Virus record (IMG/VR): IMGVR_UViG_2778261394_000010 | From: a virus | Taxonomy: Duplodnaviria > Heunggongvirae > Uroviricota > Caudoviricetes | Direction: 5' to 3' (one strand) | DNA length: 48,921 bases | In this document: positions 8,477 through 43,421 of the stretch, one piece after another | How the letters are laid out: each line of letters starts with the position of its first letter | Position numbering within the stretch: position 1 is the first letter of the stretch | Notes under the pieces: model-generated | Told to the model about the DNA's origin: nothing | The model's input: the letters and a program-made list of their open reading frames with translations, nothing else | Databases searched by the model: none | Position numbers and translations under genes: made by a program

Positions 8477-9217
8477 TTAACTGGCGGTGACGGTAATTTC
8501 TGCAACCGCAGCAAACTCACCATTACCGGATACAACCGGAATGTTGACCTTGCCTGCAGCAACGCCGTTCACGGTGATGGTCATACCACTGACCGACACG
8601 GTGGCTTTTGTTTTATCCGCAGACACCGCACGAAAGCTCTTGTCGGTTACGCCCTCCGGCTGGAAGGCCACGGTCAGCGTGGTGCTCTGCCCTTTCACCA
8701 CCGAGGTGCTGGCAGGCGTCACGGTCATGCCGGTTGCCGCTGTTACCGTGCTGCGATCTTCTGCCATCGACGGACGTCCCACATTGGTGACTTTCACCGT
8801 GCGGGTGATCACTTCCTTCGCCGTCACCGCCTTACCGATACTGCTGACCCAGCCACGGAACACATCGACCGTGCCGTTCGGGAAGCGGATTTTATAGGCA
8901 CGGGTATCACCTTCATTAAACCACGCCAGCAGCGCCTGCTGCCCCTGCTCTCCGGGCATCCACGCCAGCGTGAAGCTGGTATCTCCGGCGGATTTCTGAC
9001 CCTGCCCGGTCGCGGTCCAGTCCGCATCTTCATCATCGAGATAACTGTCGTCATAGGACTCAGCGGTCAGTTCGCCGGGCGTCAGGTCTTTAACTTTAGC
9101 CAGACGCGACCAGTCAACGTCTGAAAGCGGGTTCGCATAAGGGTCGCCGCTCCCGTTATAAACCCACAGGGTGGTTCCGGCACCTTTCACCGGCATTGTA
9201 GGATTTGGTACAGGCAT
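8477..9217 (-). CDS. V: Major tail protein V
   Basis: ATG at 9215-9217 gives [20 protein letters not shown]…, 246 aa, matching lambda gpV; the ORF track extends 10 codons upstream to an earlier Met. Confidence 0.92.
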
Positions 9218-11011: not shown

Positions 11012-11802
11012 TTACGCCAGTTGTACGGACACGAACTCATCAGGGTCAGCCAGCAGCATCAGCGGTGCTGACTGAATCATGGTGAACTCACGCGCCGGAT
11101 CGCCGGTGGTCACCCAGTTTTTCGGGTAACGGGCAGAGGCGTTAATGCCTTCGCGCTGTGCGTCCGCATCCTGAATGCAGCCATAGGTGCGCAGACCGCG
11201 TGCCTGAGTGTTCCCCAGCACCATCGTGTTGTCCGGCAGGAAGTTCTTTTTGACGCCGTTTTCCACGTACTGTCCGGAATACACGACGATGGCCACATCG
11301 CCATACATCCCCTTATAGGACACCGCTTTACCTAGGTCTTTCACCGCTGTCTCCAGCTCGGAATTAGAGCCACGACGGGTATCCAGCTTTTCCTTGACGG
11401 CTTTGAAGGAACGGAACAGCGCCCAGCCTTTCGGATCAAACACGATGATATTCACCACACCGCTGGCGTTCAGCGCGTAGGCTTCGATATCGTCGGTCGG
11501 GTCATACGTGGACTTGTCACGCTTGCTCCACTCCGTGCCGCCGGACTGCGTGATGTTATTCTCCTCACTGCGGCCCATATCCACCTCAACCGGATCGAAG
11601 GCTTCACCGGTCATGGTGTATTTGCCCTTAAGCACGGCAGAAACTGCCTGCATCTCTTCGACCTGAGCAATGGCCAGCTCTTCGTCACGCATGTTCTGCA
11701 TGATGATGCGACGGCGGCGGTAAGCCGGGTCCGCCAGATTCTGCGGATCTTCATCCGGCAGGCGACGCAGGGTCATCTGCGGATTCACTTCATGCTTCGG
11801 CT
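11012..11802 (-). pseudogene. E: Major capsid protein E, 3' fragment (codons ~83-341), separated from its 5' part by the inserted element
   Basis: Frame reads …PKHEVNPQMTLRRLPDEDPQNLADP… to the normal E C-terminus (…DEFVSVQLA); an in-frame TAG immediately upstream at 11801-11803 marks the insertion junction. Confidence 0.9.
11793..11802. repeat. Left junction core of inserted element (TGCTTCGGCT; rc AGCCGAAGCA)
   Basis: Identical 10-mer recurs at 22723..22732; E-derived sequence is continuous across the two copies once the intervening 10.9 kb is removed. Confidence 0.85.
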
Positions 11803-11874
11803 ACATGAGTCAAATATGAAAGGAACTGAATGATTTTTAATGAAATAAATGGCTCTCTCTATCAAAATACAGCT

Positions 11875-11900
11875 AAAAAGCAATACACGTAGCAATACAG
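11875..11900. repeat. 26-bp terminal direct repeat, left copy (aaaaagcaatacacgtagcaatacag)
   Basis: Near-identical copy (aaaaagcaatacaagctgcaatacag) at 22570..22595 just inside the right junction; contains tandem GCAATACA half-sites. Confidence 0.6.
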
Positions 11901-11929
11901 CGCTTCGCAAAGGTATGTCACTATATCTA

Positions 11930-12865
11930 CTAGTGCCAACCAGAATACGAATATCTTTGCTTTGCTTCTTCTGGGCTCATACCCACTAGTAAAGATACTA
12001 ATTCAAAGTCAGGTTGTGGAATTGGAATCAATGCAGCCAAATATGCTGGCTTATTGAGAACAATTGTTGATAATTTAGCTTTATTCACCTTAGATAACTC
12101 AATATTACTTTCCGCCACCTTCGGGAACTCCATAATAAATGAATTAATTTCCCTTATGAGATAATCGATCAACGCCACTATACTTTCTGTCAAATCAATA
12201 TATTTTGACAACTCACTAGCACCAATTTCTTTCTTTATTTCATCCAATTTAATTTCAAACACTGGCTTGTCTTTACTGGCAATATTAGACAAACGTTTCT
12301 TTAAATCTGAATCAAGCTGATTCCTGACAATTAAACTTTTCAAAACAAAATTATAATTAAACAAAAAAGCATCAATTCGAGCAATATTCCTCCATGAGTT
12401 TCCAATTTCTTCATCTGACGGCATAATAAGTTCATGTTTTAGTATCTTGTACTTAATAAAAAAAACAAACCTCTCAAATAGAGATTTATTAGCTGTGGGT
12501 ATCTTTTTTATAAATGAAAGACGGCTAATATCGTAATTCACCTCCCCGGCGTTAAATAAAAATTCATTTATTGCCAGCGCTCTTAATATCGGATTTCTAG
12601 ATCTCAAACCAATATAACTACTTTTAATTCCCACAAGTGTATTTATCATCTGAAAAGAAACCATCATAAGCGTATTAGCAGAATTAAATTTCTCCGTTTC
12701 TATTTTAATCTTCTCTTGCCTATTATTGATGTAATAAGCAGTTAAGCCTCCCATAAGCGCCGATAAAAAAGATAATGCAATAGGGAATACATAATCTTTT
12801 GTATAATCAACATCTGCTTTCAACATTAGTATTGCTTTAGCAATCAAAACTGCATCAGGGGTCAT
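11930..12865 (-). CDS. Hypothetical protein, AT-rich cargo gene with a predicted N-terminal transmembrane segment
   Basis: Long ORF with low-GC codon usage unlike its neighbours; hydrophobic stretch YVFPIALSFLSALMGGLTAYYI; no recognisable motif. ATG at 12865 preferred over the TTG at 12895 used by the ORF track. Confidence 0.5.
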   Translation of the reverse strand: MTPDAVLIAKAILMLKADVDYTKDYVFPIALSFLSALMGGLTAYYINNRQEKIKIETEKFNSANTLMMVSFQMINTLVGIKSSYIGLRSRNPILRALAINEFLFNAGEVNYDISRLSFIKKIPTANKSLFERFVFFIKYKILKHELIMPSDEEIGNSWRNIARIDAFLFNYNFVLKSLIVRNQLDSDLKKRLSNIASKDKPVFEIKLDEIKKEIGASELSKYIDLTESIVALIDYLIREINSFIMEFPKVAESNIELSKVNKAKLSTIVLNKPAYLAALIPIPQPDFELVSLLVGMSPEEAKQRYSYSGWH

Positions 12866-13565
12866 GTTAGAGCCGTCATTAAAAATTAAACACAATACCC
12901 ATAAAATATAACAGCTTATTGTTTAGAAAAGCAATATCATACACTCTATGATAAGCGTAATATCTGACAGGCATGGTGTGTTACGACACTTAATTAAACG
13001 TAATTTGCTAAAATTTTACACACAGAATCACACCTGGCTCTAACTCTCCTTTCATTACAATTGTAAGCATACAATTATCCTACCAGAACTTTATTGTTGA
13101 GCTCTCCCTTTTGAGCCCATCCCATAATGAATTGACGAAAGAACCGTATCTGTGGAGTAATCATTTCTGCGCGGTTCTATGTCGAAGACAAAATGTGGTA
13201 TGCGCATCTAGTCAGAGGGAAAGCAATTTTTCAGGGAAATATCATCTCTACATGGTTAAGACAACCAGAAGAAGTTATCAAGCAAGTTGGGTATGAAGAT
13301 TTTCCTATAATAGTAACGAAACGGGTTTCACCTGAGCGGTTGTGTTCGATCCGCCACAATACGCATAGGATGCCCTGTAATCCGTATTCTGCTTACTCAA
13401 CAGCTTACCAGCAGGACTCGTAAGGCTGTTGCGATAGTGCAGAAGTAGGCCACGACCATAAAGTGAAGCCAGTGGCGCGTTATCGACTACTTTAGTGTAG
13501 AGCCTGATTTCAACGCAAGCATGAGAGTTTTTTCTGGCGATAGGCCGTGACAAACAGCAACAAAA

Positions 13566-13766
13566 TCAGAGAAAGGAAACGGCAGAGGCCAAAAAGCCCG
13601 TTTTCAGCGCCTGTCATTTCCTTTCTTTTCAGAGGGTATTTTAAATAAAAACATAAAGTTACGGCGAAGAAGAACGGAAACGCCTTAAACCGGAAAATTT
13701 CCATAAATAGAGAAAAACTGCGCGCCTGACGCCCCGTAGCCTGTCAGATCGCCGGAAAGGACCCGC
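13566..13766. other. cos-like site of the inserted element, homologous to the helper cos region but with a diverged cosN 12-mer
   Basis: About 200 bp aligns without gaps to helper 28935..29133 (most positions identical by eye); the cosN position reads cgcctgacgccc (13723..13734) against helper aggtcgtcgccc. Confidence 0.8.
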
Positions 13767-13790
13767 CAGCCAGAGCGGGCCCTAATTTCA

Positions 13791-14174
13791 TCAACCAATC
13801 AGCTTATAGCGACCATCCCGTGCATTGCGGCGTACACGCTCAATCTTGAGGCATAGCGCCGCATCTGGCTTTTTTGGGACAGGTACGCGGCAATATTCAG
13901 AAGCGCGAGGAATATTATTTATCCAGTCGATCACTTCACTTAAATACCAGGCCTTACGCCCTTCCGTAACCTGCACACGCTCCGGGAACTCTCCACTAGC
14001 CTCAAGGTTTAGCAGTGTACGCCGACTCAGGGTTGTAATTTCCATCACCTGATTCATATCAACAAGGCGCTCGCTTAAACACATTTTGTCAGCGATAGCT
14101 TTTAATTCCTCTACAGCTGGATTCGGGTACATCATTTCGGCAATTGGCTTAAGGTCATTGTAATCATTCTGCAT
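13791..14174 (-). CDS. HTH protein with an AlpA/MerR-like C-terminal half, function unknown (regulator or packaging-specificity factor)
   Basis: 127-aa ORF; segment EITTLSRRTLLNLEASGEFPERVQVTEGRKAWYLSEVIDWI resembles AlpA-family HTH; strong SD AAGGGGG; immediately downstream of the D-like gene and upstream of the cos-like site. Confidence 0.55.
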   Translation of the reverse strand: MQNDYNDLKPIAEMMYPNPAVEELKAIADKMCLSERLVDMNQVMEITTLSRRTLLNLEASGEFPERVQVTEGRKAWYLSEVIDWINNIPRASEYCRVPVPKKPDAALCLKIERVRRNARDGRYKLIG

Positions 14175-14185
14175 TGTATCCCCCT

Positions 14186-14527
14186 TTACACACGAGCCAG
14201 CGGCTGAACAGAAATACCTGAGCCAACAAACGCGGCAACCTTTGCCGACAGTTCTCTTACAGACTCAGGCCAGTTCAGAGCATCAACATTTAAAACACCT
14301 GTCTTATAAACCTGTGCCTGTGTTTTTTTCGCTGTGTCGATTTGTACAGCGGAAACATAAACCGCTTTGCCTGCGCTCGTTCCATCCCATACCACTAGCG
14401 CACCAGTTGCATCTTCCTGCATCAGTGGCGTAAACGCAGGTATTACCCCTTTATTGGCTGAAAATATCCCCAGCGTAGTAACCAGTGCTTCAGTGCCAGA
14501 CATGAGTTCAGTGTAATGAGTAGCCAT
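14186..14527 (-). CDS. Head decoration protein, diverged gpD homolog carried by the element
   Basis: 113 aa; …AFTPLMQEDATGALVVWDGTSAGKAVYVSAVQ… parallels lambda gpD …[35 protein letters not shown]…; strong SD AAGGGGGAG. Confidence 0.7.
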   Translation of the reverse strand: MATHYTELMSGTEALVTTLGIFSANKGVIPAFTPLMQEDATGALVVWDGTSAGKAVYVSAVQIDTAKKTQAQVYKTGVLNVDALNWPESVRELSAKVAAFVGSGISVQPLARV

Positions 14528-14536
14528 TGCTCCCCC

Positions 14537-15577
14537 TTAGCCAATGCGAACGGTAACAAAACGATTGATGCGGGCCGGTATTGGCTGTGGTGCTGAATGT
14601 GTCTGCACATATTCAATAGCCGGATCACCAGGCACAATATAGTTTTTCGGTGCAAGTTCGGCTTTAGTCAGCCCCATTCGGATTAGCTCCGGATCCTGAA
14701 TACCGCCATAGGCGACAATCCCCTGAAGAGCCGTATTGCCAAGCACCATCAAATCAGGATCAAGGAAATGTTTTTCAGTTCCGTCCTCGTCGGTATAACG
14801 CCCGCTGTATACAACAATCGCAACATCGCCCATATACCCTTTAAAACTCACCGAATCACCAAGGTCTTTAAGGGCCGTTTCCAGTTCGGAATTAGAACCA
14901 CGACGGGTATCCAGAGCCTCTTTTATCGCTCTGAATGAACGGTATTTCTTCCATACATTACCGCCCATAATGATGATATTAGTGACGCCCTCACTAAATT
15001 CTGCGTAGCTCTCAATATCATCATTTGGATCAAAAGTTTCTTTATCCTTACCTGACCACTCAGCACCGCCAGACTGAGTGATGATATTTTGTGGTTTAAT
15101 ATTCCAGTCCAGCTCATAACGTTCAATACCATCGCCCTCAATGATATTTTTCCCCGTTGTGATTGCCTGAACGGCAAGCCATTCAATACGTGCACGAATA
15201 GCTTTAGCCTGATTTACAATCGCCTGTTTAACTTTAATATTACGCGCTCCAAAAGCATTGTATTGCTCAGGTGATACACCAGCAGGGCGCACAGCTAACT
15301 TATTTGGATCAATGCTGCTTTTCGGCTTCATATAGCCTGGACGAATTGTTTTTGATTCGTACCCTTCGTCACGTGAAACTTTACTACCCACCATAGGAGA
15401 ACAAAACGCTGCAATTGGGATATTTGGATCGTCGATTGTATCAAGAATAATATCGCGCGATTCAAACATTACCGAGCGAGTAAAAAACAAACTGGTAAAC
15501 AACGCATTTAGTTGTTTTTGTACATCTACAGCATTAACCACCTGTACAAGCTGGGTAGGCGAATATAAATCAACCAT
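14537..15577 (-). CDS. Major capsid protein, diverged gpE homolog carried by the element
   Basis: 346 aa from ATG at 15577 (SD AAGAGGA); shares ITQSGG.EWS, TRRGSNSELET and GDVAIVVYSG motifs with lambda gpE but is clearly diverged; earlier in-frame starts at 15583 and 15598 are possible. Confidence 0.85.
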   Translation of the reverse strand: MVDLYSPTQLVQVVNAVDVQKQLNALFTSLFFTRSVMFESRDIILDTIDDPNIPIAAFCSPMVGSKVSRDEGYESKTIRPGYMKPKSSIDPNKLAVRPAGVSPEQYNAFGARNIKVKQAIVNQAKAIRARIEWLAVQAITTGKNIIEGDGIERYELDWNIKPQNIITQSGGAEWSGKDKETFDPNDDIESYAEFSEGVTNIIIMGGNVWKKYRSFRAIKEALDTRRGSNSELETALKDLGDSVSFKGYMGDVAIVVYSGRYTDEDGTEKHFLDPDLMVLGNTALQGIVAYGGIQDPELIRMGLTKAELAPKNYIVPGDPAIEYVQTHSAPQPIPARINRFVTVRIG

Positions 15578-15749
15578 ACGCATCCTCTTTGCATTCATTA
15601 AAAATAATTGTGGATATATGCTATCACCGATATTTGTCATGCGAATACATGCAACCGAGTGCAATGTTGTATAAAGTTTTGGGATGACAACTTCAGCACG
15701 GATAATTAGTGTTAATATCTTCACTCCCTTTGGTCTGGATTTATGTAGC

Positions 15750-15790
15750 ATGCCGGAAAATTTATTTTTTTTCCGGCCTTTTTTATTGGC
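15750..15790 (+). terminator. Hairpin with flanking T-tract (gccggaaaa…ttttccggc + ttttttatt)
   Basis: 9-bp perfect stem followed by a T-run on the plus strand, between the SSB and capsid genes; may act in either direction given the flanking A/T tracts. Confidence 0.4.
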
Positions 15791-15795
15791 AATAT

Positions 15796-16245
15796 TTAAA
15801 ACGGAATATCATCTCCCCATTGCTCATTATCTCCCACTGGTGGATGGCTTCCTTGCTGATCTGCCTGTTGTTTTGCTCTGTTCAGTGCGTCAGTAGCCTG
15901 ACCCTGTTGATCTTTTTTGCCGCCCGGTCGCACCGTTCGCGCACTGATTACGCTGTCTGCGATAACCTGCCAGCCCTGCCGCGTTTCACCGTTCTGTCCA
16001 GTCCACTGGCTCACCTGCATATTACCCGCCACGCTCAGGAGTTCGCCTTTGTGATGCTTTGCCAGCGTGTCGGCTTGTCTGCCAAACGCCAGCACAGATA
16101 ACCACATCGTCGCCGTTCCGTCATCTGCCTGGCTGCATGGCAAAGATACCGCCATCCGTGCCAGTGTCATGGGTGTTCCCTTGCTGGTATGTTTTACCTG
16201 TGGGTCGTCCACCAGCCGCCCGTAAGCTGCTATTTGCGCCGTCAT
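15796..16245 (-). CDS. ssb: Single-stranded DNA-binding protein
   Basis: 149 aa with Gly/Gln-rich linker and acidic C-terminal tail ending DDIPF, the SSB hallmark. Confidence 0.85.
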   Translation of the reverse strand: MTAQIAAYGRLVDDPQVKHTSKGTPMTLARMAVSLPCSQADDGTATMWLSVLAFGRQADTLAKHHKGELLSVAGNMQVSQWTGQNGETRQGWQVIADSVISARTVRPGGKKDQQGQATDALNRAKQQADQQGSHPPVGDNEQWGDDIPF

Positions 16246-16256
16246 GCTGCCTGCTC

Positions 16257-16499
16257 TCAGGACTTAATATTGATGGTTGTCACTTCCTCCGCTTCGGCAA
16301 TCTCCCGTTCGGTCAGCGTGGCAAAGTTTGCAGCCGCCGTTGTCATGAATGCGCTTATCAGTTCGGGATGTGCTTTCGCGTATCCTTCCCCGGCGTTGCG
16401 GTCTATTGCCTTAATCGCCACCCTTAGCCAGTGTTCAGCCATATCAAGGGCGCGGTAATGTGGCTTTATATGTTTGTTCAGTTTTCCTGATGTGTGCAT
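16257..16499 (-). CDS. Hypothetical protein
   Basis: 80-aa ORF between the iteron origin and ssb, co-oriented with the replication operon; no motif recognised. Confidence 0.4.
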   Translation of the reverse strand: MHTSGKLNKHIKPHYRALDMAEHWLRVAIKAIDRNAGEGYAKAHPELISAFMTTAAANFATLTEREIAEAEEVTTINIKS

Positions 16500-16546
16500 T
16501 TTTATTTTTACCCCCTCGTTTAAAAAGTTTTTTGTGCACCACCACC

Positions 16547-16777
16547 TTGTCTACCTTGTCTACCTGATTAGTTATCAGGCCAGTAATGGCGCGGGTTTCA
16601 GGGAGGTAGACAGCCCCAAATAGCTGTCTACCTCATCTCTACCCGTCTCCTTACCTGTCTACAAAAATGGGTAGATAAGGTAGATAACAGGTAGACAGTG
16701 AAAAATAGTTATCTACCTGCATTAATACATTGAAATAAAAGCATTTTATTTCAGTCAGGTAGACAAGGTAGATAACC
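16547..16777. repeat. Iteron cluster, putative replication origin of the element
   Basis: At least 12 copies of GGTAGAYA / TRTCTACC in both orientations, some tandem (ggtagataaggtagataacaggtagacag), with AT-rich spacers, immediately downstream of the primase-helicase gene. Confidence 0.7.
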
Positions 16778-16788
16778 ATTGCCATTTT

Positions 16789-18540
16789 TTATAAAAACGC
16801 ATCGCAATCATCAGTAGTCGTTGCGTTGGTCTGCGTGACTCCCTTAACTTTTCGCGTAATATATTCATATCCGTAAACTTTCGCCGCTGACCTCATAGCC
16901 TTTCCGAACTCATTCACGCTCAAACATTTCCCCTTTCCTGTATATGCCATGAAGGCCATATAGACACGGTAAAGGCTGTTTCTGGTCGTGTACTTCACGG
17001 TGTCACCACCACCGCCCATCATTAGCCCACGAGCTTCCTCCAGAAACTCCAGCGCCGCGCAAAGCTCAACAACCGGATCCGTTTGCTGCTTTATTGCCAG
17101 AGCTTCATCACCGTCACGCTGTTCCAGTAATAAAGCCCGTGCCTTTTCAGGGTCAGCAAAATTAGCCAGCAAGCGGCGGATAATTACGGGGATTTCTGCC
17201 GCTATCTTTTCCGGTAATTCCTTGTCTTTTTCGTCCTCCCTTACAATGTTGTCGAACCGGAAAATCACCCGACGGCGTGACACACCTCCGGCCCGTTCGG
17301 TAAAGATCATCGGGTCGTTATTGGTTGCCAGTACCACCGCCCTTATTATCGTCGTGAATCGCTTCTCATATTTCGGGTTAATTTCAACGGGATCGCCTCC
17401 CGTGATTTTCTTGATGCCCGTGCCTTCCCCCGTATATTTCGGCTGATCGGCAAGGACGATAAGACGACTCCCGACAACCTGCGCACGCCCTCCTGCATCA
17501 TCGAGTGATGTCATCTCTGCGCTTACGGTGTTCTGTTTGCCAGCAAGCAGGGTGGCAATATGGGTAAATGTACTCTTACCGCTTCCCCCGTCTCCGGTGG
17601 CCTCAATGAACATCTGCCAGTCGTACCGGTTCGCCATAATCATGTACAGCGCGGCACATATACGCATCATCTTGCGCGGGTCTTTTCCGGCTGCGTGCTC
17701 AAGCCATTTATGAAAGTTTGGCGCGTTATCGCGGATGTTCTCCCCTGGTGCTGGTGGCGTGTACTCAATGCCGTTGTGCGTGGTGATCCAGTTCTCCGGC
17801 GTGTGCGGGGAAAATTCCCCCGTTTTCAGGTCAAGCGCACCATTGGCGAACGGCAGCAAATCGCCGGACGGCTCGCCCATTGGTTCGGCAATAACTTTTA
17901 ACGCTTCAACGGCGTTATTGATCACGCGTTTGCTGAAAGTGGCCCTGTGCTCTGAATAGATCGCCACCATTTCGCGGCTCAGCTCCATTGTGCTGATCGG
18001 ACACCATACCCCGCCGCGCCATACGTGAACGATTTCACTTTCCGGATGCACACAAACGCCATCAAAGCGCTCGGCAAGCAGCTGCGCGCGCTCACTGTCT
18101 GCCATCTGTGAAAGTTGCGCCTTTTGCTTCGTCGGAAGATTAAGCACCAGGCTTTCCCCACGCTCGCATTCCTCTTTGAGTCGCGGCAACTGGTCGGATA
18201 AATCCACTGGGCTGGTGTCAGTAATCCCCGCGTATTCGTGTACGGTCTTCACTCCAGCCACAGCCAGTAACGTAACAATCTGCGTCATGCTGTGCTCTGT
18301 GATATGTCCTGCGCGGTAAACACGCACACACTGACGATCTTCATCAATGATCCGGTAATCGGTGATGTTTTTCAGTTGCTCATCAGCCAACACGACAGGC
18401 GGCACATCGTCGGCGGCAATATGTTTACCCGCCCATTCCTGCCACTCTTTCGCATGGCTCCACGCATCACTACCTGCAAAGATGATTATCTCTGTCAGTC
18501 TGTCGCGTGGCTGTTTTTTTAAGTTCGGTGCCAGTTTCAT
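16789..18540 (-). CDS. Primase-helicase replication protein (P4-alpha / D5-like, SF3 helicase)
   Basis: 583 aa; Walker A GDGGSGKST followed by a D5_N/SF3-like region (…IVLADQPKYTGEG…LATNNDP…); adjacent to the iteron origin. Confidence 0.85.
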   Translation of the reverse strand: MKLAPNLKKQPRDRLTEIIIFAGSDAWSHAKEWQEWAGKHIAADDVPPVVLADEQLKNITDYRIIDEDRQCVRVYRAGHITEHSMTQIVTLLAVAGVKTVHEYAGITDTSPVDLSDQLPRLKEECERGESLVLNLPTKQKAQLSQMADSERAQLLAERFDGVCVHPESEIVHVWRGGVWCPISTMELSREMVAIYSEHRATFSKRVINNAVEALKVIAEPMGEPSGDLLPFANGALDLKTGEFSPHTPENWITTHNGIEYTPPAPGENIRDNAPNFHKWLEHAAGKDPRKMMRICAALYMIMANRYDWQMFIEATGDGGSGKSTFTHIATLLAGKQNTVSAEMTSLDDAGGRAQVVGSRLIVLADQPKYTGEGTGIKKITGGDPVEINPKYEKRFTTIIRAVVLATNNDPMIFTERAGGVSRRRVIFRFDNIVREDEKDKELPEKIAAEIPVIIRRLLANFADPEKARALLLEQRDGDEALAIKQQTDPVVELCAALEFLEEARGLMMGGGGDTVKYTTRNSLYRVYMAFMAYTGKGKCLSVNEFGKAMRSAAKVYGYEYITRKVKGVTQTNATTTDDCDAFL

Positions 18541-18836
18541 TTTTTGCCCCTGAATGCGTTAATCATGCTTTTCATTTTCTGGATGTTTCCCCGCGCTTTT
18601 TCCCTGCTGATGGGCTTACTGCGGGGTGCGGCATATACCAGGGAAAAATCACGCCGGAACTGATAAACAGGCATCACGCAGTCATAGCTATACCCCTCAC
18701 GACGGTAAGTGATGCGCCGTTCTGCCACGCCTTTAATCGTTACCGTGCCGCCGTATTTATCGCGGTAAATATCGCCGTTCATAAATTCAGGCCGAGCGGG
18801 GCCGCTGGCAATAAAGCCAGAATTTTTCATTTCCAT
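18537..18836 (-). CDS. Hypothetical protein
   Basis: 99-aa ORF whose stop overlaps the primase-helicase start (4-nt overlap), suggesting translational coupling. Confidence 0.4.
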   Translation of the reverse strand: MEMKNSGFIASGPARPEFMNGDIYRDKYGGTVTIKGVAERRITYRREGYSYDCVMPVYQFRRDFSLVYAAPRSKPISREKARGNIQKMKSMINAFRGKK

Positions 18837-18853
18837 ATTATTTATTCCTCGAC

Positions 18854-19075
18854 TTAACTCGACTTATTTGATAGCAGGGCACTATTTATTGCGTCATTGA
18901 GTTTTTCTGCTGCTTCATCAATAAGTGACAACAGGCCATAAGCAATATTTGCATCTTCATTGTCATTTATGCAATCAAGCCACATATTTAATATTGCTTT
19001 TGCTGAATTATTTAAAGTTAATGAACTTTCTGCACATGCTAACAATTTAAAAAAGACTTCCCGTTCTGTATTCAT
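18854..19075 (-). CDS. Hypothetical small protein (AT-rich)
   Basis: 73-aa ORF in the same operon; low GC. Confidence 0.3.
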   Translation of the reverse strand: MNTEREVFFKLLACAESSLTLNNSAKAILNMWLDCINDNEDANIAYGLLSLIDEAAEKLNDAINSALLSNKSS

Positions 19076-19267
19076 TTAATCCCCCACCAGCTTACTTTCT
19101 TCCTCAATCAAAAAACTAGCGACACTTCCCGAAAGACGCGCCAGTAGGCTCGCCAGTGCGGATATATCAGCATCTGTAATTTTGTTCGGGTATACCTCAA
19201 GAAGGCGGCAAATAATTTCTGTCTGGTGCGCACGTTCAGCGGCTTCGTGTAATGTGATTTCCTGCAT
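19076..19267 (-). CDS. Hypothetical small protein
   Basis: 63-aa ORF tightly packed between neighbours. Confidence 0.3.
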   Translation of the reverse strand: MQEITLHEAAERAHQTEIICRLLEVYPNKITDADISALASLLARLSGSVASFLIEEESKLVGD

Positions 19268-19452
19268 TAATGCACCTCTTTTAATTCATACACTGCTGAA
19301 ATAATGACTTGTGATAAGCCATATTCTGATGATTCGCTTCTCACCGCAGCAATAGCCGTCTGAACATTAACAGCCTTCACATTCTGAGCGATACCAATTG
19401 TGTGGCCTATTGGGTTAACAGCTCGGGCAAATACACGGAAGGTTTTAAGCAT
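19267..19452 (-). CDS. Hypothetical small protein, first gene of the element's leftward operon
   Basis: 61-aa ORF directly downstream of the divergent control region. Confidence 0.3.
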   Translation of the reverse strand: MLKTFRVFARAVNPIGHTIGIAQNVKAVNVQTAIAAVRSESSEYGLSQVIISAVYELKEVH

Positions 19453-19832
19453 GACTCACTCCCTGGCGGATTTTTGCAGCGAATACAGCAACACAACCGG
19501 ACGGGCAACGGCTACGCGCTTCGCGTTCCGTCCAGGCGGTTACGTGGATGATTTGAGATTCTCCGGCACTCAGTGCCAGAAAACGCCACACAAAGGCCGT
19601 TTGTGTGTGTACAAGGTGTGGTATATGATTTACAGCAACCATAACGGCTCCTAGTTTACGTTGTTGGTTAGACGCCCCGTATGTGTTCCCAGCACTGCGG
19701 GGCGTTGCTCTTTGTATTTCAACAATCCTTTCGGTGTGTTTCATGTTATGAGCGCATGAAACACACGTCAAGGCTTTTTGTATTTCTTTTTTTGTGTATA
19801 CTGAAACACACCGATGATTAGGAGTTTCAGAA

Positions 19833-20138
19833 ATGGCAACGGCTAACAAAAACGCAAAATCACAACTGACAACTGTCAGAGTCCCACTAGATGTTATGCA
19901 AGGGATGGAATCCGTTAAGCTGGACGGTGAAAGCAATGCCGGATTTATCGTAACCGCCATGCGCGGTGAAATCGCCCGCCGCCAGGCAGAAGGAAGCGGA
20001 GAAAATCCCCTCGTGTCTTCACTGGATACCTTAGCTAAGGTCGAACAAATCGGCATCAAGGCAGCGGAGGAAATCGGGCAACTCGTAGCCGTCGCTCGTG
20101 AAGAACTCCAGCGGCGTAAAGCCAAAGAATCTGAATAA
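19833..20138 (+). CDS. Putative regulator of the element, fold not assigned
   Basis: 101-aa ORF with strong SD AGGAG, transcribed divergently from the replication/capsid operon across a structured intergenic region. Confidence 0.4.
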   Translation: MATANKNAKSQLTTVRVPLDVMQGMESVKLDGESNAGFIVTAMRGEIARRQAEGSGENPLVSSLDTLAKVEQIGIKAAEEIGQLVAVAREELQRRKAKESE

Positions 20139-20488
20139 TTAGTATCAGCGCCGTGATGTGAGTAACTACGGCGCATTGCTATGTAAATACTGGCAATAAA
20201 CAGAAAAGGTAGTTCTACTCCGAATAATTTTATCTGACACTACTCCTGAACTAACATGCGCTTATCTTACAGGATATAAATATAAATCCATAAAATCACG
20301 ATTAAATAAAGTCGCTCCAAACATAAACCACACCCAACGCTTAACAAGATAGCAACAAACAGGTAAATAACTTGCAGAAATATTTATCGCAAGGATTATC
20401 ATTATTAATGACAAATCACTTTACCAAGTCATTCCCCTCTCTTATCATAAAGAGAAAGTAATAAATAAGTTAAGGGAGTTAGAATGCT

Positions 20489-21025
20489 ATGAATCTAAAA
20501 AAAATAGCCACAAACACAAAAAACAAGATAACAGAAACATTTAATAAACTTATATTAGAGGCATCTAAAACCCCCACACAAGATGAAATTAAAATACTTG
20601 AGAGAAGGAGTAAGAAGTTTAATTACTCCTTTTTCTCATACGCAGTCACAGGAGCTATAATAGTTTTTTGCTCTCAACCATTAATTAAATACGCAAACCC
20701 AATACTTATTTTATTGAGTGGTCTGTTACTGTCTATCATCATTATCATTCTCAGAATGATTTATATTTCACAAGCGAATGCATCATGGACAACCAAAAAA
20801 CGCTCACATGTACTAGTTCATTTTCTTTCTGCATGTTTCATAGCATCAACATTGACGTTGCTATATCAGGCTTACGATAATAACATCACACACAAATTGT
20901 ACTGTAAAAATATACAACAACTTATTGAAAAAAGGATAGAAACAGAAAAAAACATCAGCATATTCAGTGGGATGCAATGCACCCCGGTATATGATTACTC
21001 TTTATTTGGATTTAATCTCTTATAA
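20489..21025 (+). CDS. Hypothetical membrane protein, AT-rich cargo gene
   Basis: 178 aa with hydrophobic segments (AVTGAIIVFCSQPLI, ILILLSGLLLSIIIIIL); very low GC; followed by a perfect 13-bp inverted repeat. Confidence 0.5.
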   Translation: MNLKKIATNTKNKITETFNKLILEASKTPTQDEIKILERRSKKFNYSFFSYAVTGAIIVFCSQPLIKYANPILILLSGLLLSIIIIILRMIYISQANASWTTKKRSHVLVHFLSACFIASTLTLLYQAYDNNITHKLYCKNIQQLIEKRIETEKNISIFSGMQCTPVYDYSLFGFNLL

Positions 21026-21034
21026 AGAATGTTA

Positions 21035-21068
21035 TTACTGATTTGAGTACAAATTCTCAAATCAGTAA
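21035..21068. terminator. Perfect 13-bp inverted repeat (ttactgatttgag / ctcaaatcagtaa), probable bidirectional terminator
   Basis: Lies between the convergent cargo gene (+) and the AlpA gene (-), flanked by A/T runs. Confidence 0.5.
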
Positions 21069-21094
21069 TTCATAATATTTTATTCTGAGATAAT

Positions 21095-21331
21095 TTAAAC
21101 TACCCACTCACCTCGAATCCATGCCTGCACTTCTGAAAGACGATATGCAACAGCAGTGGAACCAATCTTGATCCGCTTAGGAAATTTTCCTTCCTTCTCC
21201 AGCTTCCAGCGTGTGCTGTTCGCAAGAGTGGTTAGCTCCCGACATTCTTTCTCACGGATCATTCGGTCAATGTTAGGAATGTACTCCAGACCCTTTTTAT
21301 CAACAATTGCCATTTTTTTCATGTTAACCAA
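21095..21331 (-). CDS. alpA: AlpA-family HTH regulator / excisionase-like protein
   Basis: 78 aa; ELTTLANSTRWKLEKEGKFPKRIKIGSTAVAYRLSEVQAWI fits the AlpA/Xis HTH_17 pattern; immediately downstream of the integrase. Confidence 0.75.
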   Translation of the reverse strand: MVNMKKMAIVDKKGLEYIPNIDRMIREKECRELTTLANSTRWKLEKEGKFPKRIKIGSTAVAYRLSEVQAWIRGEWVV

Positions 21332-22559
21332 CCTTTTGTTTGAGGATTGTCACTTTTGAATCAGCACCTGCGATGCTATTGAGATATGTAGTCCAGAGTT
21401 CCAGAGCATCCAGTTTTTTAGCCATAAACTTACTCCGGTTGTAAACACCTGCCACGCCAGGTAGCGCATGGCCTAACAGTTGTTCTACTACATAAAATTC
21501 AACACCGAGATCACTTAGATGAGTAGATAGCGTTCTTCTAAGGTCGTGTAGTGACCATTGTTTTTCATGGCCCAAACGTTTACCGATTTTCCCCCCAATC
21601 TTGCTTACGCTTTCTCTAATTCGCAGACTTCCCAGCACATAACCAGTATGTTTTGTCTCTTCGTGAACATCCGTTACCCACTGTCGTAGAATTTCAGGTA
21701 CTGGTCTGACGATTTCAACACCAGTTTTTGAGTGATCTTTTGGTACAGTCCAAACCCAACTTTCGAGATCCCATTCGCTCCATTCTGATAATCGGGCTTC
21801 ACTCATTCGACATCCAAATACTGTACAAAGCACAAACATTTTTCGCGTGTATTCAGACATTAGTTTTAAATCAGGCTCGACAAAAATTGCCTTCCAGAGC
21901 TGGCCGAGTTCGGCTTCATCCAGAACCCGATCCCGCTTACCTGCAATCTGCCCCACATCACTCATGCGCAAATCCTTTAAAGCATCACACGTCGCGTACT
22001 GGCGTACCCGACAAAAACGAAGAGCTAATTTAGTGTCAGAAAAAACATACGCCGCCATAACTGGTGCATTACGTTTAATTCGGTCAAAACAGTCCAGCCA
22101 TTCATATAGGTGAGTGTCATTTACGGGCAAATGACCGATATAGGGAAAGATATGCTTTCGAAATCTGCCAAGCGTTACAGCATGAGTTTTACGACGCACC
22201 TTACAGTAATTTTCATACCAGTAATTTAGTGCATCCTCCACTGTAACCGGCTTTAAGCGTTCTTCAGCCTGAATCTTAATCTGGATACGCGGATCACGTT
22301 TGTCAGCCAACCAACCACGGCACTCGTCGCGCTTTTCCCTTGCCTGTTTGAGTGACATATCAGGATATTTACCCAACGTTAGCCAGACCGGAGCAGCCCG
22401 GCCACCTGCTAACCTGTAGAAGAAAACAAAGCTCACAGCCCCTTTAGTACTCACACGAATAGAAAGCCCCTTTCCATCAGCAATGGTGATCTGCTTTTCT
22501 CTGGGTTTCCCCAGATATCCTTTAAGCGCTTTGTCGCTCAGTTTGTTCTCGCCAGCCAT
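21324..22559 (-). CDS. int: Tyrosine integrase (P4-type) of the inserted element
   Basis: ATG at 22559 gives MAGENKLSDKALKGYLG…; C-terminal catalytic region with …HDLRRTLSTHLSDLGV…LLGHA…; about 160 bp from the right junction core. Confidence 0.9.
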   Translation of the reverse strand: MAGENKLSDKALKGYLGKPREKQITIADGKGLSIRVSTKGAVSFVFFYRLAGGRAAPVWLTLGKYPDMSLKQAREKRDECRGWLADKRDPRIQIKIQAEERLKPVTVEDALNYWYENYCKVRRKTHAVTLGRFRKHIFPYIGHLPVNDTHLYEWLDCFDRIKRNAPVMAAYVFSDTKLALRFCRVRQYATCDALKDLRMSDVGQIAGKRDRVLDEAELGQLWKAIFVEPDLKLMSEYTRKMFVLCTVFGCRMSEARLSEWSEWDLESWVWTVPKDHSKTGVEIVRPVPEILRQWVTDVHEETKHTGYVLGSLRIRESVSKIGGKIGKRLGHEKQWSLHDLRRTLSTHLSDLGVEFYVVEQLLGHALPGVAGVYNRSKFMAKKLDALELWTTYLNSIAGADSKVTILKQKVG

Positions 22560-22569
22560 TTTTAGCCCC

Positions 22570-22595
22570 AAAAAGCAATACAAGCTGCAATACAG
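22570..22595. repeat. 26-bp terminal direct repeat, right copy
   Basis: aaaaagcaatacaagctgcaatacag, matching the left copy at 11875..11900 at 24 of 26 positions by eye. Confidence 0.6.
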
Positions 22596-22722
22596 AGATG
22601 ATTGCAACACACAGATAACGAGGAAAATTCAGTGAAAGCACCAGATAAACTTATTCTTTATTATCAAAAGATTAAGTGTAAAAACCAGCAACTACACGAA
22701 AGCCTCAGAAAGCCATGCTAAG

Positions 22723-22732
22723 TGCTTCGGCT
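22723..22732. repeat. Right junction core of inserted element (TGCTTCGGCT)
   Basis: Second copy of the 10-mer; on the minus strand E reads …GTC AAG CCG AAG CAC and then diverges into element sequence (LAWLSEAFV stop). Confidence 0.85.
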
Positions 22733-22967
22733 TGACGTATCCCGGCGTAAATTCAGAGGTGGAGCCGCCACGGGAACGGATAACCTCACCGGAAACAATC
22801 GGCGAAACGTACAGCGCCATGTTTACCAGTCCCGGAATTTGTGAGAGATAGACTTTCTCCGTGGTGAAGGGATAGCTCTCACGGAAAAAGAGACGCAGAA
22901 ACAGCGGATCAAACTTAAATTTCTGCTCATTTGCCGCCAGCAGTTGGGCGGTTGTGTACATCGACAT
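22723..22967 (-). pseudogene. E: Major capsid protein E, 5' fragment (codons 1-82)
   Basis: ATG at 22967 gives MSMYTTAQLLAANEQKFKFDPLFLRLFFRESYPFTTEKVYLSQIPGLVNMALYVSPIVSGEVIRSRGGSTSEFTPGYVKPKH, the lambda gpE N-terminus, then runs into the element. Confidence 0.9.
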
Positions 22968-23022
22968 AAAAAAATCCCGTAAAAAAAGCCGCACAGGCGG
23001 CCTTTAGTGATGAAGGGTCAGG

Positions 23023-29865: not shown

Positions 29866-30108
29866 TTTGTCGCTCCATGCGCTTGCTCTTCATCTAGCGG
29901 TTAAAATATTACTTCAAATCTTTCTGTATGAAGGTTTGAGCACGTTGGCCTTACATACATCTGTCGGTTGTATTTCCCTCCAGAATGCCAGCAGGACCGC
30001 ACTTTGTTACGCAACCAATACTATTAATTGAAAACATTCCTAATATTTGACATAAATCATCAACAAAACACAAAGAGGTCAGACCAGATTGAAGCGATAA
30101 AAACGATA

Positions 30109-30561
30109 ATGCAAACTACGCGCCCTCGTATCACATGGAAGGTTTTACCAATGGCTCAGGTTGCCATTTTTAAAGAAATATTCGATCAAGTGCGAAAAGA
30201 TTTAAACTGTGAATTGTTTTATTCTGAACTAAAACGTCACAATGTCTCACATTATATTTACTATCTAGCCACAGATAATATTCACATTGTGTTAGAAAAC
30301 GATAACACCGTGTTAATAAAAGGACTTAAAAAGGTTGTAAATGTTAAATTCTCAAGAAATACGCATCTTATAGAAACGTCCTATGATAGGTTGAAATCAA
30401 GAGAAATCACATTTCAGCAATACAGGGAAAATCTTGCTAAAGCAGGAGTTTTCCGATGGGTTACAAATATCCACGAACATAAAAGATATTACTATACCTT
30501 TGATAATTCATTACTATTTACTGAGAGCATTCAGAACACTACACAAATCTTTCCACGCTAA
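30109..30561 (+). CDS. ybcV: Hypothetical protein (YbcV-like)
   Basis: [47 protein letters not shown]…; first ATG in frame at 30109, alternative at 30151. Confidence 0.55.
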
Positions 30562-32347: not shown

Positions 32348-32935
32348 AACCCCACCTCGCAGACAAAGCGGGTGTAAATTGAGGGAATACAACGTATCGC
32401 AAAAAAGCAGAAACGTAACTGACTCCGAGTCAGTGAATAACTCAGGTATTGAGTTATCAGCTAATATCGAGACTCAAAAAATGGAAAAACCAGCTCGACG
32501 GCGGGTTTAAGCTGTGTGACGAAGTAACCACTCTTAACAGCATAACCAATTTTTTACGTACGTAAACCACTGAATGATATTTATGAGAATGCTACCGAGT
32601 GTTCAAAACATCACCACAAATACATAAGAAAACCTCAACAAATAACCAATAAATAATTTCCAGTGTTATTTTTAGCTGGTTTAAATTAAACAGACGAATT
32701 ATAGAACCACCATAAATAACAGCCATTAATATAAATTAGCTAATAGATTTATTTTTGTTCAAATAAGAGCCATAAATAGATTTCGATAGAAAAAGTTCAG
32801 ATAAAAATAGAGATCTACTTCACAAATTAAATGAGAAACTAAAACTTACATCTTGAAATAATCACATTGATTAGATGAATATTTATCGCGCAGTGACATC
32901 ATTTTTTAATAATAGTTCAAAAAAAAGGGCTCACG

Positions 32936-34033
32936 ATGAAAAAATTAACAGTGGCAATTTCTGCTGTAGCTGCATCAGTACTGATGGCGATGTCTGCTCA
33001 GGCAGCTGAAATTTATAATAAAGACAGTAACAAGCTGGATCTGTACGGGAAAGTTAATGCCAAGCACTACTTTTCCTCTAACGATGCAGATGATGGTGAT
33101 ACTACTTATGTTCGTCTGGGCTTCAAAGGCGAAACCCAAATCAACGATCAGCTGACTGGTTTCGGTCAGTGGGAATATGAATTCAAAGGCAACCGCGCTG
33201 AATCTCAAGGTTCCTCCAAAGACAAAACCCGTCTTGCATTTGCAGGCCTGAAATTCGGTGACTACGGCTCAATCGATTACGGCCGTAACTACGGTGTAGC
33301 ATACGACATCGGTGCGTGGACTGACGTTCTGCCAGAATTCGGTGGCGATACCTGGACCCAAACAGATGTGTTCATGACTGGTCGCACCACAGGTGTTGCA
33401 ACCTATCGTAACAACGACTTCTTTGGTCTGGTTGATGGTCTGAACTTTGCTGCTCAGTACCAAGGCAAAAACGATCGTAGCGATTTCGATAACTACACCG
33501 AAGGTAACGGTGATGGCTTCGGTTTCTCTGCTACCTATGAATACGAAGGATTCGGTATCGGTGCAACTTATGCGAAATCTGATCGTACCGACACTCAAGT
33601 TAATGCAGGGAAAGTTCTTCCTGAAGTATTTGCTTCCGGTAAAAATGCAGAAGTTTGGGCCGCAGGTCTGAAATATGACGCTAACAACATTTACCTGGCC
33701 ACTACCTATTCTGAAACCCAGAATATGACTGTATTTGCTGATCACTTCGTTGCTAATAAAGCTCAAAACTTCGAAGCTGTTGCACAATATCAGTTCGATT
33801 TCGGTCTGCGTCCGTCCGTTGCTTACCTGCAATCTAAAGGTAAGGATCTTGGAGTATGGGGCGATCAGGACTTAGTCAAATATGTTGATGTAGGTGCAAC
33901 CTATTACTTCAACAAAAATATGTCTACTTTCGTTGATTACAAAATCAACCTGCTTGACAAAAATGACTTCACTAAAGCACTCGGTGTAAGCACTGATGAC
34001 ATCGTTGCTGTAGGTCTGGTTTACCAGTTCTAA
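32936..34033 (+). CDS. Outer-membrane porin (NmpC/Lc/OmpC family, prophage moron)
   Basis: 365 aa with signal peptide (…[12 protein letters not shown]), trimeric-porin motifs and C-terminal …VGLVYQF; between Q and S on the opposite strand, as for nmpC in DLP12. Confidence 0.9.
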
Positions 34034-41716: not shown

Positions 41717-42565
41717 ATGTCTTCGATTTGGGGAAAAAAGTTGATGACGAAAGAACAAGAGCCAAACACTGATGAAGTGAAACCAGAGCAAGGAAGTTTG
41801 TTTGAATTAGAATTTCATGAATATACACCTTCAAGCTTAGGCACTGCACACCTTTCTGGTTTCGCTATTGCCACTGATGAAATGGAATATGCAGTTAAAA
41901 GCATGCGTTCCACCCCACCTTTTCCTGTACAAAACCCAACTCAAGTACCGGCAGCGGAATGGTTTTGCACAAATTTAGCTGAAAAATGCGGCATCGCTAC
42001 ACCTGTGTGCAAAATTCTCAAGTGTATTGCTAATGGGGAGTATGTTTTTGGCTCTCGCATAGAGTTTTCAGCCTGGAAATCTGGTCTCAATAGTCCTCAA
42101 TGGATAAATTTGCTCTCAAATGCTTCTGAATCCTTAAAGAAGCAACTCTGGGCAATTTATGCATTTGATCAGTTTGTATATAACATTGACAGACACCTCA
42201 ACAACTACTTATACATGGAAAACACCCGAGGCAATGTTATAGTTAAAACATTCGATTTTAGTCTAAGCTCTTTTGTTATAGGCTGGCCACGAAATACCCC
42301 TCATATACTACCAACAGACTCCAGTACAACAACAAACTGGACGATTGCTAAACAATTCATTGGCGACACTGATGATCTGAGAAAGTGCGCATTATCTGTC
42401 CTTGACAAAATTGAAAAAATTGGAGTTGAGACTATATCTGATATACTTAACTCTATGCCTGAAGCATGGATGCCACCAATGCATAAGGAGTATTTTTTGA
42501 AGTGGTGGGACAGCGAGGAGCGAATCGATAGGCTAAATGCCATAAGACTGGAGATAACATCTTGA
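41717..42565 (+). CDS. Kinase-fold protein (HipA/CtkA- or PI3/4-kinase-like catalytic loop), first gene of an immunity-region module
   Basis: 282 aa; catalytic-loop-like YNIDRHLNNYLY (D-R-H-x-N-N) followed by FDFSLSSF; co-transcribed with cI at the lambda rexA position. Confidence 0.5.
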   Translation: MSSIWGKKLMTKEQEPNTDEVKPEQGSLFELEFHEYTPSSLGTAHLSGFAIATDEMEYAVKSMRSTPPFPVQNPTQVPAAEWFCTNLAEKCGIATPVCKILKCIANGEYVFGSRIEFSAWKSGLNSPQWINLLSNASESLKKQLWAIYAFDQFVYNIDRHLNNYLYMENTRGNVIVKTFDFSLSSFVIGWPRNTPHILPTDSSTTTNWTIAKQFIGDTDDLRKCALSVLDKIEKIGVETISDILNSMPEAWMPPMHKEYFLKWWDSEERIDRLNAIRLEITS

Positions 42566-43368: not shown

Positions 43369-43394
43369 AAAAAACTGACTAATTTAATTAATAA

Positions 43395-43421
43395 CCCGGC
43401 CACCGTGCCGGGTTTTCTTTT
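43395..43421 (+). terminator. Rho-independent terminator ending the cI operon
   Basis: Hairpin cccggc-caccgt-gccggg followed by ttttctttt. Confidence 0.65.

Follow-up and report, generated by a model that had tools for sequence, protein, structure and literature searches.

This study concerns a small, AT-rich gene of 178 codons at positions 20489-21025 of a 48,921-nucleotide stretch of tailed-phage DNA (Caudoviricetes; IMG/VR record IMGVR_UViG_2778261394_000010), referred to here as the window. The gene encodes a predicted polytopic membrane protein and lies in a variable cassette next to alpA in a helper-embedded phage-inducible chromosomal island (HE-PICI), a satellite that is itself lodged in a lambdoid prophage's major capsid gene E. 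The cassette and the features within it are as follows (coordinates are those of the window).

20184-21103 (+): variable cassette, which differs between otherwise near-identical HE-PICIs; 920 bp, GC content 0.307
20420-20448 (+): promoter-like site from a consensus scan, with -35 TTTACC, a 17-nt spacer and -10 TATCAT; 9/12 matches
20472-20478 (+): AAGGGAG, a Shine-Dalgarno-like sequence that does not vary among the aligned alleles and precedes the ATG by 10 nt
20489-21025 (+): membrane-protein gene, ATG start, 178 codons, 178 residues
about 20723-20848 (+): mosaic patch, about residues 79-120 (end of the second transmembrane (TM) segment, loop 2 and start of the third), which splits two groups of E. 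coli alleles
21034-21047 and 21056-21069 (no strand assigned): arms of a perfect inverted repeat (14 bp, 8-nt loop), located in the gap that separates the membrane-protein gene from the convergent alpA

The open reading frame (ORF) has exactly the coordinates given in a first-pass annotation of this DNA, and the very low GC content claimed there amounts to 0.31 over the ORF, with the same value at third codon positions (GC3 = 0.31). The 500-nt interval 20501-21000 has a GC content of 0.324, versus 0.45-0.55 for the adjoining backbone. When the 920-bp cassette was shuffled 5000 times with its dinucleotides preserved, the longest ORF in any frame had a mean of 56 codons and a maximum of 158; since 178 codons were never attained, the 178-residue reading frame is not a chance product of composition. 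The 26 fetched loci that carry the E. coli-type gene contained 13 distinct intact protein alleles of it, with pairwise dN/dS (ratio of non-synonymous to synonymous substitution rates) of 0.17-0.52 among the E. coli alleles; the allele of strain NRG857c (locus L007) was 88% identical. A single inactivated copy was found among these loci, in E. coli 1218KP (L009 6483-7894), in which an IS5 insertion cuts the gene after about 117 native codons and leaves an annotated product of 130 residues. In the mosaic patch, which has sharp limits, the two E. coli allele groups differ with dS 0.47 and dN 0.38, while the rest of the gene holds no non-synonymous and four synonymous differences between them. This pattern suggests recombination or gene conversion from a diverged allele in the patch, and outside it the alleles indicate strong constraint on the C-terminal domain, on the first loop and on the N-terminal part of the protein.

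Two smaller reading frames accompany the gene. An antisense ORF of 50 codons (20262-20414) was considered as the source of a small hydrophobic peptide and was rejected, as it starts with TTG, lacks a Shine-Dalgarno sequence and has third-codon-position changes at only one of its five polymorphic sites. Immediately 5' of the membrane-protein gene there is a two-codon mini-ORF, ATG-CTA-TGA (20484-20492), whose stop shares bases with the gene's start codon. This mini-ORF is not conserved, as its ATG is replaced by ATA in the Rb-23 allele, and it is probably without significance.

The cassette is bounded by abrupt breaks in homology. On the ylcI side homology ends at about 20180-20184, just beyond a GC-rich hairpin (query 19440-20480, matches ending at 741-744), and on the alpA side the elements without the gene become homologous again at about 21103, in the last alpA codons (query 21095-22610, position 9-10). 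DNA of the gene was present in 68 of 5426 complete E. coli genomes, always on the chromosome, and it adjoined alpA in the records inspected; the int-alpA pair occurs at an identity of at least 95% in about 179 complete E. coli genomes. The comparison with the equivalent locus in related elements, which had been proposed with the first-pass annotation, revealed that the same slot beside such int-alpA pairs holds other genes: a TIR protein matching the PADLOC candidate PDC-S35 (E 7e-67) in 37 genomes, a DUF2971 protein together with a SWIM zinc-finger gene in 33, and a 265-residue hypothetical protein with a HicB-like gene and a SWIM gene in four; four alternative occupants were counted at this position. 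The other occupants run in the same direction as alpA, whose end they overlap or abut, and the membrane-protein gene alone is convergent among the occupants examined. What we observed is therefore a gene that is present or absent at one fixed position, with conserved flanks on both sides, the pattern that defines morons and the cargo of PICI hotspots. A moron would also be an autonomous transcription unit of atypical composition; of such features the cassette shows a GC content of 31% versus about 50% in the flanks, an opposite orientation and a hairpin that travels with it, while its promoter is a candidate recognized from the consensus only. According to the literature, immune systems are located at the 5' or 3' end of PICIs (PMC11364771), which together with the polymorphism of the slot justifies the label of cargo. 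The gene is cargo, as the first-pass annotation had called it, and not a core gene; homology breaks at about 20184 and 21103, the slot is polymorphic, and remote relatives of the gene are single-gene morons in prophages and satellites. Nor is it a conserved core gene of the element family with a known role other than defence. The same annotation considered that position and composition fit a superinfection-exclusion or abortive-infection membrane effector, and a defence role of this kind is plausible.

Occupancy of this position is recurrent. Two related cap_E HE-PICIs, one from Kosakonia sp. S29 (L034) and one from a viral contig (L035), carry homologues, 33-37% identical to the protein of the window, at the same position and on the same opposite strand; the family is therefore a recurrent occupant of the slot and not a one-off. 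In both, the first gene to be read rightwards is the homologue, divergent from the Icd-like early operon, and an extra cargo gene of unknown function lies between it and alpA. In the same comparison the integrases are 88-92% and the AlpA proteins 91-93% identical, so that the membrane protein has diverged much further than the backbone. The persistence of divergent homologues at one position in related HE-PICIs with different replication modules could also be read as a sign of a role in the life cycle of the satellite, either in the timing of helper lysis, in the manner of a holin or antiholin, or in keeping out further helpers or rival satellites. In keeping with such a role, the HE-PICI depends closely on helper late functions (PMC10111431), and one family member had a very weak match to a holin/antiholin PHROG (E 0.029). 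However, that match is at noise level, and about 60% of the elements with the same int and alpA lack the gene, which implies that it is dispensable for the satellite cycle. Moreover, the family is also found in ordinary prophages and in satellite-free chromosomal islands, and an orientation antisense to helper late transcription, which has been argued to propagate through the HE-PICI (PMC10111431), is contrary to a late-stage function. We consider a life-cycle role highly improbable.

The cassette carries candidate signals for its own expression. The promoter-like site lies about 40 nt 5' of the start codon and is identical in four E. coli alleles. At the other end, the first-pass annotation had described a perfect 13-bp inverted-repeat terminator at 21035-21068; the repeat is indeed perfect, but it comprises 14 bp and spans 21034-21069, and its action as a terminator is plausible rather than established. 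As RNA, it folds much better than shuffled sequence: the + strand reaches -21.2 kcal/mol, with z = -5.4, and the - strand -18.2 kcal/mol, with z = -3.6. The stem contains only four G-C pairs, and in a consensus scan a terminator-like score was obtained for the - strand alone, on which alpA lies. It is likely, judging from sequence and folding, to serve as a bidirectional transcription stop. The hairpin core, ACTGATTTGAG..CTCAAATCAGT (21037-21066), accompanies the E. coli-type gene in every locus fetched. L035 has it too, in identical form (8491-8518), even though the protein encoded there is only 32-33% identical; the core was counted in 26 loci with the gene, L035 among them. It was absent from L002-L005, four HE-PICIs without the membrane-protein gene. 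Being present with the gene and absent without it, the hairpin is part of the cassette and not of the backbone. Its conservation, which exceeds that of the ORF, may reflect a constrained terminator or a recent recombination at the 3' end. We also considered the hairpin as an integron attC site and discarded this idea, as the RYYYAAC/GTTRRRY ends are missing from the sequence. With regard to orientation, the annotated statement that the gene is transcribed opposite to the rest of the element needs a qualification: the - strand does carry the replication genes as well as int and alpA, but the ylcI-like regulator gene shares the + strand with the membrane-protein gene.

Searches with the protein revealed that it is not an orphan. 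A word-indexed search retrieved E. coli sequences only (88-100% identity), while an exhaustive HMMER search against 1.84 billion representatives gave 11 hits, with ten remote relatives of 113-175 residues with 24-37% identity, and a profile search extended these to 106 clusters at E <= 1e-3 (about 140-220 residues). None of the clusters bears a functional name, nearly all being unnamed or 'hypothetical'; the named organisms among them are Pseudomonas and Sphingomonas, and the remainder are metagenomic. A member of the gammaproteobacterial clade was present in only 3 of 185,579 species-representative genomes, and the cassette had no blastn match among plasmids (PLSDB). The 5027 models of PADLOC-DB v2 yielded no family at E <= 1 for the membrane protein, a sequence profile search of the PDB likewise gave no match at E <= 1, and Pfam and PHROG scans of 17 members returned scattered single-member matches with no consistent family. 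Taken together, the sequence comparisons point to a family that is new and uncharacterised and whose distribution is sparse and patchy. The membrane-protein gene of the window is real, is under selection and is cargo, and it belongs to a family that resides mainly on mobile elements.

The first-pass annotation had allowed for two or three hydrophobic helices. Kyte-Doolittle analysis of the 178-residue protein identified three hydrophobic segments, at about residues 47-66 (moderate), 71-93 (strong) and 107-127 (moderate), and the AlphaFold2 (AF2) model agreed on three. The predicted layout is as follows.

residues 1-46: N-terminal cytoplasmic helices, with 11 lysine or arginine residues (K/R)
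residues about 47-66: TM1
residues 63-71: loop QPLIKYANP
residues about 71-93: TM2
residues 94-106: K/R-rich loop
residues about 107-127: TM3
remaining ~50 residues: C-terminal domain with C139, Q143, F159 and C164

The AF2 model built from the family alignment is all-helical, with helices at residues 3-26, 31-68, 71-94, 101-147 and 152-161, a mean confidence (predicted local distance difference test, pLDDT) of 86 and a predicted template modelling score (pTM) of 0.60; a model made from the single sequence (pLDDT 63) was set aside in its favour. In an alignment of 17 diverse members, P64, C139, Q143, F159 and C164 are invariant and P71 is nearly so. The family signature can be written as TM1 followed by Q-P-L-x-[KR]-[FY]-x-x-P, or QP..(F/Y)..P in short, then TM2 and TM3, and then N-[DS]-x-x-C-x-x-[IL]-Q ... 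F-x-x-[LM]-x-C-[RT]-P-Q, or C...Q...F....C in short. Conservation is poor in loop 2 and in the N-terminus, which comprises 10 to 73 residues depending on the family member, and all the invariant residues fall in loop 1 and in the C-terminal tail. Because a protein with three TM segments places its first loop and its C-terminal tail on the same side, these two regions would share one face of the membrane. As for which face this is, residues 1-46 are basic, with their 11 K/R, the loop between TM2 and TM3 contains KKR (three K/R) and no acidic residue, and the tail of about 50 residues is balanced; from this charge bias we infer that the N-terminus and loop 2 are cytoplasmic in the enterobacterial members. 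Since the K/R bias places these two regions in the cytoplasm and the invariant cysteine pair would fit a periplasmic disulfide, the conserved face formed by the TM1-TM2 loop and the C-terminal domain is probably periplasmic.

We examined 13 neighbourhoods of family members. Eight of them are prophages or satellites (the window, L034, L035, L012/L013, L042/L043, L045, L047 and L048/L049), and the other five are variable or island-like chromosomal regions. In two different siphophage-type prophages the family gene is an opposite-strand insert between a Mu-F-like head gene and the next head gene, and in three prophages of high-GC hosts (two from Sphingomonas; L045 not assigned) it lies beside BrnT/BrnA, Gp49/helix-turn-helix or PadR-RelE modules. 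In all the gammaproteobacterial cases the gene has a GC content of 0.27-0.39, versus 0.47-0.56 for the locus. No recurring partner gene was found across the 13 neighbourhoods. One prophage, L045 (5223-6429), contains two tandem family paralogues followed by a BrnT/BrnA pair; the upstream protein, of 225 residues, ends in ...RC.N.Q....F.ALGCRP.G, which is the same family motif. A conserved two-gene system with an upstream protein of 225-266 residues was considered and dismissed, given that this neighbour in L045/L046 is a tandem paralogue and that the other neighbours are unrelated.

Some of these contexts could point to an abortive-infection or membrane-damaging effector, which would remain inert in the inner membrane until a phage cue made it open or oligomerise, and would then depolarise the membrane and kill the cell ahead of progeny production, as do RexB and the 2TM/4TM effectors of retrons and of cyclic-oligonucleotide-based antiphage signalling systems (CBASS). 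A small polytopic membrane protein would suit this role, all the more in a slot that otherwise holds a TIR-type candidate (PDC-S35), and toxin-antitoxin modules often lie beside family members. In Pseudomonas mandelii (AZQQ01000096.1; L010 8303-10447) a distant member shares its strand with a type XI retron reverse transcriptase (RT)-protease gene (PADLOC E 1e-174) and begins 49 bp downstream of it, with DUF4238 and Fic genes nearby. However, no sensor partner recurs, and a closely related Pseudomonas homologue (P0021) has another upstream gene and no RT. The role of a type XI retron accessory was rejected, because the RT-protease adjoins a member in 1 of 13 neighbourhoods and the window contains no RT; in addition, type XI retrons have been described as single-gene fusions without an accessory protein (PMC7736814). 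The conserved residues are, furthermore, predicted to lie opposite the K/R-rich cytoplasmic side, on which an intracellular sensor would be expected, and the protein has no similarity to RexB. An effector of this kind is unlikely in our judgement. The sequence does not decide between abortive infection and exclusion of the phage, and we lean towards exclusion at the envelope, which is favoured by the lack of a conserved partner gene and by the conserved, putatively periplasmic face.

Other contexts bring to mind an orphan immunity protein, carried by mobile elements, against a membrane-acting toxin such as a pore-forming bacteriocin or a type VI secretion system (T6SS) effector delivered to the periplasm. 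Immunity proteins to pore-forming colicins are inner-membrane proteins of about 110-180 residues with three or four TM helices, a description that would suit the protein studied here. In Pantoea a member lies between a T6SS cluster (downstream of tssF/G/J) and an HNH gene near smpB. On the metagenome contig Ga0209281_1000627 (L036 7189-8516), and also in L037 and L038, a member diverges from a tyrosine-recombinase fragment of 200 residues; in L036, umuD/umuC lie downstream and an Imm42 gene lies upstream, two genes away, in an integron- or small-island-like layout in which attC-like ends were not seen. L011 and L039/L040 are Pseudomonas-type contexts without informative neighbours, apart from a pyocin S gene (Cytotoxic domain) at a distance of 3.5 kb in L011. 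Yet none of these toxin genes adjoins a member, there is no recurring cognate toxin, prophages or satellites make up eight of the 13 neighbourhoods, and no colicin or bacteriocin immunity family of Pfam or NCBIfam was among the matches of the 17 members. These observations make an immunity function quite unlikely, though a little less so than a role in the satellite life cycle.

The known protein that most resembles ours in its general properties is SieA of phage P22. SieA has 162-164 residues, compared with 178 here, and both proteins have three predicted TM helices and no signal peptide; in both cases a single gene with its own promoter, or a candidate for one, is located among the late or structural genes of a temperate element. 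SieA, which resides in the inner membrane and is expressed from the prophage, is alone enough to block DNA injection, and changes in the ejection proteins overcome it (PMC10883804). By analogy, we propose that the membrane protein of the window is expressed during lysogeny, faces the periplasm from the inner membrane and excludes superinfecting phages, a reading to which we assign a probability of about 40%. According to this proposal, the promoter-like site, the ORF and the co-travelling hairpin would form a self-contained moron cassette in the accessory slot beside alpA. Because the gene is antisense both to the int-alpA operon and to helper late transcription through the satellite, its product would be expected in the resting lysogen and not during induction. 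It would be inserted in the inner membrane by its three TM segments, with a cytoplasmic N-terminus and a periplasmic C-terminus. The loop QP..(F/Y)..P and the C-terminal two-cysteine domain would share the periplasmic face, where the cysteines would form a disulfide, and this face would interfere with the DNA-delivery apparatus of the incoming phage or with the inner-membrane component that this apparatus uses. The lysogen, and thereby the helper and the satellite, would be protected by superinfection exclusion as with SieA, even though the two proteins are unrelated in sequence. Exclusion at the step of DNA entry fits the data best because we are dealing with a single gene, in moron positions, that is presumably expressed in the lysogen, whose product has a conserved, probably periplasmic face and which diverges faster than the backbone. 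The topology, the timing of expression and the exclusion function are what we infer here, from sequence and context.

Several observations weigh against this proposal. Scans of the single sequence with Pfam, PHROG, PADLOC and NCBIfam gave no match, leaving only sub-threshold hydrophobic noise (DUF443, 19 bits with a cut-off of 26; cola_mem, 13.7 with a cut-off of 150). Comparison by hhalign of a 16-sequence family profile with P22 SieA gave a probability of 0.13% over four aligned columns, and the corresponding values were 0.09% for lambda RexB, 0.48% for HK97 gp15 and 0.05% for lambda SieB. Foldseek was uninformative, with best E values of 2.3 (PDB) and 0.43 (viral models). No match was obtained in 50,697 phage genomes (INPHARED) by tblastn with the membrane protein and with a homologue from a phage moron (P0020), so the family is unknown in any laboratory-studied phage, and a literature search turned up no experiments on any member, the RefSeq protein accessions being unmatched. 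Moreover, the promoter candidate is a 9/12 consensus match and nothing else, the topology is based on hydropathy, charge bias and the cysteine pair only, the charge bias of loop 2 is weak in the alphaproteobacterial members, and some members are near toxin or secretion loci (the Pantoea T6SS, Imm42 in L036 and pyocin S in L011) and not near phage genes.

The differences from known systems are also informative. The C-terminal SieA motif FxRYPxEAxxFNK is absent from the 178-residue protein, and the conserved motif of SieA is predicted to be cytoplasmic, in contrast to the conserved loop and cysteine-pair domain described here, which are predicted to be periplasmic. RexB, SieB and gp15 are small membrane proteins of exclusion systems that temperate coliphages express in the prophage state, a profile that our protein would share. 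However, RexB has four TM segments and requires RexA, and no rexA-like neighbour is present beside the membrane-protein gene; HK97 gp15 is a classic moron with its own terminator, but has only 62 residues. A more specific version of our proposal is that the family constitutes a new superinfection-exclusion family, unrelated to SieA, Imm and gp15, in which a disulfide-stabilised periplasmic face blocks genome entry. The family would then diversify rapidly, as in the 33-37% identity on a backbone of roughly 90% identity and in the mosaic patch, through an arms race with ejection or tape-measure proteins. In this detailed form we regard it as tentative and somewhat doubtful.

The element that carries the gene is a known HE-PICI of the E:Phage_cap_E:80 type (Tommasini, Mageeney & Williams 2023, PMC10111431). 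Its main features, in addition to those of the cassette, are listed below.

11793-22732 (-): whole HE-PICI, about 10.9 kb, inside the lambda-like major capsid gene E of the lambdoid helper prophage
22692-22994 and 11012-11788 (-): split lambda-like E gene, N-terminal part (100 codons) and C-terminal part, respectively
19833-20138 (+): YlcI/YnfO-family gene, 101 residues, ribbon-helix-helix-like regulator (NCBIfam NF041551, E 8.5e-18; phrog_6522)
20148-20174 (no strand assigned): GC-rich hairpin 3' of the ylcI-like gene, read from the sequence
21095-21331 (-): alpA (Pfam Phage_AlpA, E 3e-15), convergent with the membrane-protein gene
21324-22610 (-): HE-PICI tyrosine integrase gene (Pfam Arm-DNA-bind_3 and Phage_integrase; 411-residue form in RefSeq, strain 104)

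A 10-bp att (attachment site) identity block, TGCTTCGGCT, is present at both ends of the element (11793-11802 and 22723-22732). Read along the - strand, the genes of the satellite encode the integrase, AlpA, the membrane protein (+), the YlcI/YnfO-like regulator (+) and an Icd-like protein; there follow three small ORFs, a DUF4222 gene, genes for a D5-type primase and a single-stranded DNA-binding protein (SSB), the satellite's own E-like capsid and D-like decoration genes and, at the far end, a second AlpA-like gene and an AT-rich gene for a protein of 321 residues. The prototype of this type is Eco567.11capE of E. coli NRG857c, our locus L007, with which the element has in common the integrase, alpA, the primase, E-like and D-like capsid genes of its own and the 10-bp att block within a lambda-like E; the strand of E also encodes int and alpA, the configuration found in NRG857c 11capE. 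In the paper that described the prototype, the zone after alpA is termed the 'Bro zone', with DNA-interactive proteins and immunity RNAs, and neither this membrane protein nor any defence cargo is discussed (PMC10111431). Here, by contrast, the slot after alpA holds a membrane protein gene on the opposite strand, with no Rfam match. When the whole element was scanned with Rfam, nothing was obtained at E <= 1, C4 and isrK included, and accordingly no P4-like CI/C4/isrK RNA was detected.

The satellite encodes a second AlpA-family protein, of 127 residues (13791-14174, - strand; Pfam E 7.6e-9; phrog_2790), whose gene is directly downstream of the capsid and decoration genes and adjoins another cargo site, likewise polymorphic, at the satellite's 3' end. 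In the window this site contains the gene for the AT-rich 321-residue protein (11930-12895, - strand), which belongs to phrog_21267 (unknown function), matches neither Pfam nor PADLOC and has one hydrophobic segment near its N-terminus. A comparison of this site at L001 3171-4887 and L006 2815-3957 identified GmrSD_N(DUF262) and HEPN genes in strains 104 and NRG857c, and a gene for a TIR+DUF3298 protein of 380 residues in IAI39 and Rb-23. Further AT-rich stretches (GC content 0.31-0.38) were noted in the prophage part of the window, at 30001-30500, 32501-33000 and 42001-43500; these may be additional morons.

Accessory immune-system hotspots of PICIs and P4-like satellites were reportedly described in 2022 by Fillol-Salom et al., as cited in PMC11364771, and by Rousset et al. 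The element studied here resembles them in having a polymorphic slot next to int, at its 5' end, and another at its 3' end, with TIR proteins, GmrSD_N plus HEPN pairs and PADLOC candidates among the occupants; it differs in that the membrane-protein gene matches no defence model and is oriented against the int-alpA operon. Both the type of satellite and the concept of a hotspot for defence cargo were thus already known, while the family itself is new and probably does a known kind of job.

In summary, the membrane-protein gene is the most frequent occupant of the int-proximal slot in the prototype HE-PICI, being found in about 38% of the E. coli carriers, and the PADLOC and DefenseFinder catalogues currently miss the family to which it belongs. 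If the protein does act in exclusion, it would add a new family to the few understood phage blocks at the level of the Gram-negative envelope, and would offer a handle on the inner-membrane or periplasmic step of DNA delivery that it targets. If it confers immunity to a toxin or serves another purpose, its presence would imply that these hotspots carry more than anti-phage genes.

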